This document shows positions 12,704-14,225 of a stretch of DNA of 14,300 bases, piece after piece (positions within the stretch are counted from its first letter, which is position 1; every line of letters begins with the position of its first letter). The notes under the pieces were generated by a model, which did not search any database, was not told the DNA's origin, and saw nothing but the letters and a program-made list of their open reading frames with translations. This DNA comes from a virus: UHGV virus genome UHGV-0153413; one strand, given 5' to 3'. A program made the position numbers and the translations under genes.

Positions 12704-13411
12704 ATGAATTTGAATAAATTCGACGAGCCATTCAGCCCTGAAGATATCGAATGGCGAATACAGCAAAGCGGTAAAACACGCGATGGCAAGGTGTGGGCTA
12801 TGGTGCTGGCTTATGTCACGAACCGGGCAATCATGAAGCGCCTGGACGATGTTTGCGGCAAAGCAGGATGGCGCAATGAATACCGCGATATTCCCAACAA
12901 CGGCGGAGTTGAATGCGGCATATCAATCAAGATTGATTCCGAATGGGTAACCAAATGGGATGCCGCTGAAAACACGCAGGTAGAAGCCGTCAAAGGTGGT
13001 CGTTCCGGTGCAATGAAGCGCGCTGCCGTTCAGTGGGGAATCGGTCGGTATCTGTATAACCTTGAGGAAGGTTTCGCACAAACATCTCTCGATAAAAAGC
13101 AGGGGTGGCACAGGGCAAAACTGAAGGATGGAACAGGATTTTACTGGTCCCCTCCATCGCTGCCGGGCTGGGCAATGCCAGTATCAGATAACAAATCACC
13201 ACCAGAAAATACCAACCAGAAATCTCCATCGGTTGACTGCGAACAAATCCTGAAAGACTTCAGCGATTATGCATCGAAAGAAACTGACAAGAAAAAACTC
13301 ATCGAGCGTTATCAGCGTGACTGGCAATTAATGGCTGGCAATGAGGATGCGCAGGCTAAATGCGTTCAGGTAATGAACATCAGAGTTAACGAGCTAAAAC
13401 AGGCGGCATAA
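12704..13411 (+). CDS. Putative single-strand annealing protein (Rad52-like family)
   Basis: 235-aa ORF with RBS GAGGTGA. Sits where lambda has bet, immediately upstream of an SSB gene. N-terminal region (WAMVLAYVTNRAIMKRLDDVCGKAGW...GISIK) is consistent with Rad52-like recombinases as recalled; not verified. Confidence 0.55.
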   Translation: MNLNKFDEPFSPEDIEWRIQQSGKTRDGKVWAMVLAYVTNRAIMKRLDDVCGKAGWRNEYRDIPNNGGVECGISIKIDSEWVTKWDAAENTQVEAVKGGRSGAMKRAAVQWGIGRYLYNLEEGFAQTSLDKKQGWHRAKLKDGTGFYWSPPSLPGWAMPVSDNKSPPENTNQKSPSVDCEQILKDFSDYASKETDKKKLIERYQRDWQLMAGNEDAQAKCVQVMNIRVNELKQAA

Positions 13412-13918
13412 ATGGCAAGCAGAGGCGTAAATAAGGTGATTATCCTTGGTCGGGTAGGACAAGACCCGGAAGTTCGATACTCACCATCAGGAACAGCGTT
13501 CGCTAACCTGACAATAGCCACGTCAGAACAATGGCGAGATAAAAATACTGGCGAGCAAAAGGAATTGACTGAATGGCATCGTGTTGCTGTATCCGGGAAA
13601 CTGGCTGAGGTCGTGGGGCAGTATGTGAAAAAAGGTGATCAGATTTATTTCGAGGGAATGCTGAGAACCAGAAAGTGGAAAGACCAGTCAGGGCAAGACC
13701 GTTACACAACCGAGGTTCATGTCGGAATTAATGGCGTGATGCAAATGCTTGGCGGCATTGGCGACAGCAAACAACAAGCAGCCAGCAGGCAATCACAGAA
13801 GCCACAGCAGCAATCATCACCAGCACAACACAACGAACCTCCGATGGATTTTGACGACGATATACCCTTTGCACCAGTAACTCTCCCCTTCCCTCGTCAC
13901 GCTATTCACGCAATTTAA
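13412..13918 (+). CDS. ssb: Single-stranded DNA-binding protein (SSB) with a 15-aa extension past the DDDIPF motif
   Basis: OB-fold N-terminus [34 protein letters not shown]...W(H)RV, Gln/Pro-rich linker and acidic tip MDFDDDIPF. The ORF then continues [15 protein letters not shown] before the stop. Confidence 0.85.
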
Positions 13919-13931
13919 TCAGGAGAAAATC

Positions 13932-14225
13932 ATGCCAGCGCCTCAGTATGGTGCGGATGACCCGCGCCGCTGTTCCGGCAATTCCGTATCGGAGGTGCTG
14001 GATAAATTCAGAAAAAACTACGACCTGATAATGTCGCTACCGCAGGAAACGAAAAAGGAAAAGGAATTTCGCCACTGTATATGGCTTGCAGAGAAAGAAG
14101 AACGCGAGCGAATTTACCAGACATCAATCCGACCATTCCGCAAAGCCACATATACCCACTTCCCTGAAATTGACCCGCGCCTGCGTAATTACCGCTCACG
14201 CTATGGCGCTATCAGTAATGACTGA
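13932..14225 (+). CDS. Hypothetical 97-aa protein
   Basis: RBS AGGAG 7 nt before ATG 13932. No family recognised. Confidence 0.5.
   Translation: MPAPQYGADDPRRCSGNSVSEVLDKFRKNYDLIMSLPQETKKEKEFRHCIWLAEKEERERIYQTSIRPFRKATYTHFPEIDPRLRNYRSRYGAISND

Follow-up and report, generated by a model that had tools for sequence, protein, structure and literature searches.

The ssb gene and its recombination module

The window, i.e. the whole 14,300-nucleotide stretch of the viral genome UHGV-0153413 that was analysed, carries on its plus strand at 13412..13918 an ATG-started open reading frame of 168 residues that encodes a bacterial-type SSB, a protein that binds single-stranded DNA, and closes with a TAA stop codon at 13916-13918. 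The Pfam SSB profile PF00436 covers residues 6-104 of this protein (E=1.6e-36; 125 bits, the cut-off being 26), PHROG 44 is matched at E=1.6e-66, and the gene shares 99.8% nucleotide identity with the gene for HK75 gp31. Immediately upstream lies the gene of a Rad52/Rad22-family single-strand annealing protein (12704..13411, +; Pfam PF04098, E=4.7e-26), whose stop codon abuts the ssb ATG; the HK75 counterpart of this Rad52-like annealase is annotated "Erf-like". Downstream, 13 nt past the ssb stop and behind a GGAG ribosome-binding site at 13922-13925, starts abc2, a P22-type anti-RecBCD gene (13932..14225, +; Pfam PF11043, Anti-RecBCD_p2, E=2.1e-63). The contiguous order of annealase, ssb and abc2, an early-left operon arrangement, is that of HK75, and the remainder of the window resembles the immunity and replication regions of lambdoid phages. 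By its reading frame, its profile matches and its identity to HK75, the gene in the window encodes a true SSB and forms part of a lambdoid prophage recombination module of the HK75 type, which consists of a Rad52-like annealase, SSB and Abc2. The same protein with the same C-terminal extension is found in HK75 (gp31, 99-100%), mEp235, mEpX2, epsilon34 (gp35) and ECP1, and the shared gene order makes the window a member of this HK75 group. In the relevant text of a survey of lambdoid modules, HK75 is the prototype of "SSB-1" of the lambdoid Rec module, and its SSBs are without experimental study (PMC12315714).

Four regions can be distinguished in the SSB. The OB-fold ssDNA-binding core (residues about 8-115; 13433..13756, +) comprises, in an AlphaFold2 monomer model built on a 108-sequence alignment, strands E8-15 to E109-115 with pLDDT of 72-88. 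It is followed by a Q/P/S-rich linker (residues 116-145; 13757..13846, +) that is assigned as disordered from a pLDDT of about 30 and from column entropy, and that in the same alignment is hypervariable between alleles with the exception of a conserved PPM immediately before the tip. The acidic tip DFDDDIPF (residues 146-153; 13847..13870, +), delimited by sequence, entropy and pN/pS, is internal rather than C-terminal, and beyond it stands a conserved, disordered C-terminal motif of 15 residues, the extension (residues 154-168; 13871..13915, +). The last 28 residues, read directly from the sequence, run through the tip and extension to the TAA, and the sequence-only reading of this gene, which had counted 15 residues beyond DIPF, was exact: the tip is 146-153 and the extension 154-168, ahead of the TAA at 13916. 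The OB-fold profile match, the disordered linker and the acidic D-F-D-D-D-I-P-F are all properties of the SSB family; what the window protein lacks is the property by which the tip becomes a hub, an IPF with a free Phe alpha-carboxylate at the extreme C-terminus, residues 154-168 coming after it. Comparison with E. coli SSB (tip DDDIPF) gives the same result, i.e. likeness in the OB core, the disordered Q/P-rich linker and the intact MDFDDDIPF, and a difference at the terminus, where in E. coli SSB the Phe is last and partners bind its carboxyl end (PMC3152348), whereas in the window SSB 15 residues lie beyond the Phe.

Conservation and selection of the extension

The extension follows the consensus [AS]-P-[VI]-[TG]-L-[PQ]-[FY]-[PS]-[RK]-H-x-[IV]-[HY]-x-[IL]. 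The sequence-only reading had proposed a comparison with SSB genes of related prophages, and when this was carried out the extension proved to be conserved, being present in 112 of the representatives of the 120 best 90%-identity protein clusters, with a length of exactly 15 residues in all but one of the 112 (a truncated copy). The extended clusters carry names from Klebsiella, Citrobacter, Pluralibacter, Phytobacter, Enterobacter and Salmonella, and besides E. coli, prophages of at least five further genera carry the extension. Among isolated phages the tip-extension junction occurs at 99.4-99.8% nucleotide identity to the window in HK75, mEp235 and mEpX2, at 89% in epsilon34, g341c and NM-3, and at 73-75% in ECP1 and HZ41, and it is found also in the ssb of CP-1639; independently sequenced phages with the extension span 73-100% nucleotide identity. 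A 97-nt junction probe has matches in 406 of 5426 complete E. coli genomes, with the tip-extension junction itself covered in 297 of the 5426, and the matched genes are annotated ssb by the NCBI pipeline. DNA encoding PVTLPFPRH is present at at least 120 viral loci, and 93 of the 120 among the matches listed are extended SSBs. Judged by this recurrence, the extension is no mere accident of an open frame, and tip plus extension are common to a large family of SSBs from enterobacterial prophages.

Selection on the peptide was assessed in a sample of bacterial contigs, one genome per species, in which only DIPFAPVT was imposed and codons 5-15 of the extension were left free. The 8 true matches, two of them from Escherichia sp. 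and the others from Enterobacter, Kluyvera, Pseudescherichia, Buttiauxella and an assembly with an odd label, all retain LPFPRH[ATS]IH[AS]I and a stop codon at the identical position. Over the 11 free codons 16 synonymous and 4 non-synonymous differences from the window are seen, the latter confined to two positions. Nei-Gojobori sums over 15 pairs, from a sample that was not chosen for these 11 codons, give pN/pS of about 0.09 for extension codons 5-15 and of 0.025 for the 12 codons that immediately precede it, tip included. One haplotype (L043/L161) has 8 synonymous and no amino-acid changes in the extension. The extension is as conserved as the tip: column entropies in the 108-sequence alignment range over 0-0.5 bits for the tip and 0-1.3 bits for the extension, against values of mostly 1-2.8 bits for the linker. 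Since pS is only 0.47 in the extension and reaches 0.88 in the tip, part of the likeness among extensions may be due to a recent spread through recombination and not to constraint over the long term.

Residues 115-168 are predicted by AlphaFold2 to be disordered (pLDDT about 30), and because it is conserved yet predicted disordered the extension behaves as a selected, portable short linear motif of the SSB C-terminus. The monomer model gives no sign of the tail docking on the OB fold, which speaks only weakly against such docking, since SSB is tetrameric and the tail may bind in trans. When 1.49 Mb of retrieved phage loci were scanned for further proteins ending in the motif, it turned up only in SSBs, in the nuclease discussed below and in two remnants.

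The portability of the motif is apparent from its surroundings. Tip and extension are joined to three OB cores, the phage SSB-1 core, a host-like core (L144) and a core of the MAINTITVSG type (L145, L150, L151). Among the matches listed, the gene that follows the extended ssb is abc2 at 58 loci or a DnaQ-like exonuclease gene at 35, and the gene that precedes it encodes a Rad52-like annealase in 73 cases, Erf in 9, a Sak4-like protein in 1 (L144) and another HNH gene product in 6. Because the cores and the upstream and downstream genes all vary, the extension, as these gene arrangements indicate, is part of an ssb 3' module that is independent of the neighbouring gene or of any single annealase family.

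An endonuclease-gene insertion point between tip and extension

In phages Sf6, IME10, N7, CurroJimenez and Huey the match to the window ssb is interrupted by about 440-480 nt annotated "endonuclease", and among the matches listed the same point is occupied in Sf6, in locus L013 and in 24 viral contigs. The arrangement is clearest in a pairwise alignment with Huey. The first 431 nt of the two genes are identical (13412-13842); there follow 8 mismatches within the 25 nt of the tip codons (13843..13867, +), a stretch that is a candidate endonuclease recognition or immunity region, and then an in-frame insertion of 438 nt in Huey between the codons for F153 and A154 (13870..13871), a point that is empty in the window and that the sequence-only reading had missed. 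Past the insertion the alignment resumes for 72 nt with a single mismatch, the middle base of a codon that is GCA in the window and GAA in Huey. The inserted DNA encodes PMNFDDEIPF and a stop, and behind these it contributes a ribosome-binding site and an ORF of 155 codons. In Huey, Sf6, IME10 and N7 the SSB consequently ends at a canonical IPF, and the nuclease ORF runs in frame through the same 14-15 codons that in the window belong to ssb, as can be read in the 26 C-terminal residues of the Huey endonuclease. The endonuclease ORFs at this locus, Sf6 gp26 included, end in YPDE, then E or A, then 14 residues of the extension; where the junction residue is Ala (L013, L027, L034, L116) all 15 residues are shared. 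The sequence-only reading had allowed for a stop directly after IPF in related genomes; such stops do occur, but they come from the endonuclease cassette or from another type of locus.

Occupied and empty alleles differ also in their tips. The occupied alleles have MNFDD(E or SD)IPF followed by a stop in 26 of the 27 recovered, the remaining one (L087) having MDFDDSDIPF and a stop, and almost all empty alleles have M(D/E)FDDDIPF. Empty alleles with an atypical tip, exceptions to this pattern, are CP-1639, L023, L037 and L120. CP-1639 and L023 combine the endonuclease-type tip (NFDDEIPF) with the extension, a combination that a precise loss of the endonuclease gene would be expected to leave. 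A second type of locus with another downstream flank shows the same alternation, M(D/E)FDDDIPF-TGA when empty and, in four occupied cases, MNFDDEIPF-TAG plus a nuclease that ends YPEDLKAA. Those nuclease copies that could be placed in context adjoin the 3' end of an ssb, even of a non-orthologous one (L007-L009, L013, L014). Degenerate forms are also found: a decayed nuclease copy with an internal deletion in phiKp_30, SSB-OB::nuclease fusions in P0016 and P0017 and further fusions in P0013 and P0024, and, in L014, a frameshifted tail with the nuclease ORF retained. Rearrangement breakpoints cluster close to the insertion site in L118 and L090.

A precise presence/absence site and sequence differences clustered beside the insertion are what an empty homing allele displays, and both are found here. 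By this comparison the window is an endonuclease-free allele of an insertion site at the ssb 3' end, and occupied and empty alleles are distributed as for a free-standing homing endonuclease gene aimed at the conserved tip-coding DNA, with cleavage putative. An intein- or intron-borne endonuclease was considered and ruled out, as in occupied alleles ssb is closed by a stop after IPF and the nuclease has a ribosome-binding site and an ATG of its own, so that two proteins result rather than one spliced product. Free-standing homing endonuclease genes are familiar from phages, e.g. seg and mob of T4, and mobE, which splits nrdA in Aeromonas phage Aeh1. With these the present gene shares its own start codon, the precise presence/absence site, the clustered flank changes and the occurrence of decayed copies; it differs in that the insertion falls between two motifs, trims the SSB to a canonical end and reuses the codons beyond it, homing itself being putative.

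The inserted gene is of the Sf6 gp26/PHROG 2340 type, and the profile stops at residues 139-143; no Pfam family is recognised in the nuclease, and a Foldseek search of its model against the PDB gave nothing significant. AlphaFold2 assigns pLDDT >90 to most of residues 1-142 and <50 to residues 143-155. In a 32-sequence alignment, members of the nuclease family end 3-13 residues past the catalytic motif and the long tail is present only at this locus. Both nuclease subtypes occur with both locus-specific tails (P0005 vs P0023), so that the tail goes with the locus. Among the matches listed, 21 extension haplotypes occur in the SSB context vs 9 in the nuclease context, the former being the more divergent and the wider in genera. 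The diversity of haplotypes and the family alignment together point to the extension as the older element, into which the endonuclease gene was inserted.

Other sources of the extension fared poorly. A mosaic junction with P22-type DNA, in which the extension would stem from the abc1 3' end or from the spacer between abc1 and abc2, was rejected, as Abc1 ends in SRLSRLRKK and no similarity to the spacer is seen by eye, and is disfavoured also by the different gene that follows the extension in epsilon34-type phages. Read-through into the spacer of the second locus type was likewise rejected, with a local alignment score of 13 against 13.4 +/- 2.4 for shuffles. A search with only the last 44 SSB residues returned short fragments alone and was uninformative.

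The events proposed are then as follows. An endonuclease gene, putatively of HNH type, would have entered a pre-existing extension at F153|A154; besides the nuclease ORF it supplies a stop codon, a ribosome-binding site and a changed tip, either NFDDEIPF or NFDDSDIPF. Empty alleles would be cut by the endonuclease in the DNA that codes for DFDDDIPF, and the N..E tip variant of its own gene would shield the occupied alleles from it. Taken as a whole, the account in which tip and extension form a selected module that was split by the nuclease, the window is a nuclease-free allele and the extension caps SSB docking is considered reasonably probable.

The opposite polarity, a neutral scar, is regarded as unlikely. 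It supposes that an ssb ending in IPF-stop followed by the endonuclease gene was ancestral, and that a deletion of 3n nucleotides fused SSB to the nuclease tail, the fusion then spreading by recombination; the deletion would begin with the ssb stop codon and leave just the final 15 codons of the nuclease ORF. The identity of the 14-15 residues and of their DNA in the SSB and nuclease contexts, and the sharing of all 15 residues by the Ala-junction nuclease copies, would fit such a fusion, as would the pairing in CP-1639 and L023 of the nuclease-linked tip with the extension, and the nuclease gene is seen to decay by deletion (phiKp_30, and the fusions P0016, P0017 and P0024). Against these stand the location of the tail outside the folded nuclease and its profile and its absence at other loci; the far greater number and divergence of extension haplotypes in the SSB context, over more genera; and a pN/pS of 0.09 in that context, which is not neutral. 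The deletion would moreover have to start exactly at the stop codon, and no matching bases lie at the required end points, so that a microhomology-mediated deletion of the nuclease gene was rejected.

Proposed capping of the tip and alternative roles of the extension

The free C-terminal tip of SSB underlies the recruitment of more than a dozen genome-maintenance proteins, and the consequence of extending it can be derived from the manner in which the tip is bound. Partners clamp both the side chain and the free alpha-carboxylate of the terminal Phe, and for this reason the extension should weaken or abolish docking of the tip, blocking at least that docking which depends on a free Phe carboxylate. 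RecO, e.g., uses an arginine, Arg132, to anchor the tip at its carboxyl end (PMC3152348), and it is by extrapolation from partners of this type that the burial of the terminal Phe carboxylate, claimed in the sequence-only reading, can be said to hold. In the favoured account of a selected tip-plus-extension module the extension would be a cap that weakens SSB docking to host partners, and this is its least certain step. The conserved tail residues P155, L158, F160, R162, H163, I165 and I168 probably serve a second purpose, in binding a partner or in stability; i.e. the extension may offer a second short linear motif, PVTLPF..RH.IH.I, for a different partner or for the control of protein turnover. 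An altered partner specificity of the extended SSB, as the sequence-only reading had suggested, is plausible. Insertion of the endonuclease gene would then uncap the SSB and transfer the motif to the nuclease. Huey and Sf6 function with an uncapped SSB in the same module, and the cap is therefore dispensable in at least some phages.

A bolder form of this idea, thought distinctly unlikely, is that the tail is a portable host-factor docking or turnover signal and that endonuclease invasion acts as a toggle that uncaps SSB and hands the peptide to the nuclease. By eye only, PVTLPF has some likeness to beta-clamp-binding hexapeptides such as QLSLPL, and RH-AIHAI-COOH to the basic and non-polar C-terminal tags of the ClpX type. 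Were such a toggle real, the capped phage SSB would stay off the host partner network and the uncapped one would be competent for the host hub, and a selfish element would be rewiring the interaction network of a phage recombination module.

The adjacent annealing protein, which the sequence-only reading had offered as an example of a new partner, finds no support, and retargeting of SSB by the extension to the annealase encoded upstream is held to be improbable. There is precedent for it in that cognate annealases can need phage SSB tails, the last six residues of HK620 SSB being required for the stimulation of Sak4 (PMC5928155), and the ssb start follows immediately on the annealase stop. 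HK620 SSB is like the window protein in being a recombination-module SSB whose C-terminal residues matter, there for the phage partner Sak4 (PMC5928155); it differs in having a free NDYPPF end with no extension, and in being of another SSB type. However, the extension is found beside all three annealase families in the counts given above, Huey pairs a nearly identical Rad52-like annealase (23 differences in 708 nt), together with Abc2, with an SSB that has no extension, and the nuclease bears the same tail where SSB is without it.

That the conserved element acts as DNA or RNA, e.g. as a nuclease recognition site, a module boundary or a signal for translational coupling, with the peptide irrelevant, is very improbable. 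The lower pS of the extension relative to the tip would fit such an element, as would the main haplotype, which stays unchanged on ssb cores with 11-27% divergence, and the rearrangement breakpoints near the site in L118 and L090. Divergent haplotypes, however, alter 5-8 third positions with the amino acids unchanged, length and frame are kept in all but one of the 112 extended representatives, and the variation of the downstream gene and spacer (abc2 or the exonuclease) argues against a coupling signal for one gene. Hardly credible at all is an artefact at the ssb 3' end, whether from sequencing, assembly or a frameshift, the alternative entertained in the sequence-only reading, since hundreds of assemblies made independently, some of them complete genomes and some isolated phages, share the identical junction, base-calling error is untenable because the extension recurs independently, and the extension is inherited, widespread and under purifying selection.

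The sequences concerned are public and annotated, and it is the extension and its link to the nuclease gene that appear undescribed. A literature search on the peptide, and on ssb with HNH, homing or C-terminal extension, returned no account of the extension, nor of the fact that the nuclease tail is identical to it; of the two possibilities joined in the sequence-only reading, that the extension is widespread and already characterised, the first is borne out and the second finds no support in this search. The survey of lambdoid modules does not discuss the extension in its relevant text, and there lists HNH genes, cautiously, as possible module members (PMC12315714). A closely similar described arrangement is the SSB/endonuclease pair gp27/gp26 of Sf6, with that of Huey, which belongs to the same module and in which gp26 ends in 14 residues of the window SSB; it differs in that SSB stops after DIPF and the tail is on the nuclease, whereas the window is without the nuclease gene of about 438-480 nt. 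The Sf6 record itself points out 14 residues identical to "E. coli SSB". In Sf6-type modules the "endonuclease" has the look of a mobile insertion and not of a constituent of the module. For annotation this means that the last 14 residues of the nuclease are borrowed from ssb and that ssb-nuclease deletion fusions are now annotated as SSBs. Lambdoid modules are also being mined for recombineering tools that rely on SSB tails. In about 5% of complete E. coli genomes, then, a prophage SSB family keeps the tip and buries it under a conserved peptide; these buried-tip SSBs provide a natural test of the free-terminus rule and hint at an unrecognised interaction or regulatory motif.

Reading frame and fusions of the nuclease gene

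At loci of the window type the HNH-type endonuclease gene (Sf6 gp26 / PHROG 2340 family), which in related phages is inserted between the acidic tip of the SSB and its 15-residue extension, has its ATG in frame with ssb and is separated from it by only the stop codon and 3-5 codons (phage or prophage loci L004, 1960-1980; L002, 2972-2990; and L013, 1456-1476), so that one change in the stop codon would be enough to fuse SSB and nuclease by read-through. Where the downstream flank differs, at the second type of locus (L007), ssb and the nuclease gene are out of frame with each other.

Among the proteins of this nuclease family P0016 and P0017 (E. coli), P0013 (Salmonella) and P0024 are deletion fusions. 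In P0016 and P0017, labelled 'single-stranded DNA-binding protein', an N-terminal part from an SSB OB-fold passes directly into the C-terminal half of the nuclease, and the tail [14 protein letters not shown] is retained. P0013 consists of unrelated sequence fused to the N-terminal half of the nuclease, and in P0024 the downstream exonuclease is fused, via a frameshift, to the C-terminal part of the nuclease.

Two loci have undergone independent rearrangements with breakpoints at most about 10 nt from the IPF/A junction, the boundary of tip and extension (13870/13871 in the window). At L118 (about 2090-2210) an IS256-like transposase gene adjoins ...[18 protein letters not shown], and at L090 (about 3050) ...GIPF-APVTL... 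has a J-like tail-fibre gene of a prophage directly beside it. These breakpoints fit a break-prone site at the junction; they could also be a coincidence.

Annotation, integrity and hosts of the module

The annealase gene 5' of ssb (12704-13411 in the window; 2293-3000 in L001) is termed 'Erf-like' in RefSeq phage records, but its product matches Pfam Rad52_Rad22 (E=4.7e-26) and not ERF; genuine ERF-family annealases adjoin other extended SSBs, e.g. at L013. In Salmonella phage 103203_sal5 (1501-1972) ssb translated from the conserved start meets stops after ~25 codons, the sole CDS that the record gives in this region is a shorter one from 1550, and the abc2 frame downstream (about 2600-2760) looks disrupted too, reflecting either a module in decay or sequencing errors.

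In Escherichia sp. E1V33 ssb with the extension occurs twice; the tails are identical and the downstream modules differ, one being of exonuclease type and one of abc2 type, which implies two prophages with this module in one genome. The 799 kb contig CACSKA010000001.1, labelled 'Chryseobacterium sp. 18061', also encodes an extended SSB of enterobacterial prophage type; the taxonomic label or the purity of this assembly looks doubtful.

A second HNH family beside ssb

A second HNH family, HNH_3 (Pfam; T7 gp7.7-like), unrelated to the first, also adjoins ssb. Its gene lies downstream of ssb in ES18 (2010-2531) and 103203_sal5 (2140-2532), and between the annealase gene and ssb at L008 (2077-2544) and at 6 of the extended-SSB viral loci. 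Nuclease-gene insertions appear to be drawn to both ends of ssb.
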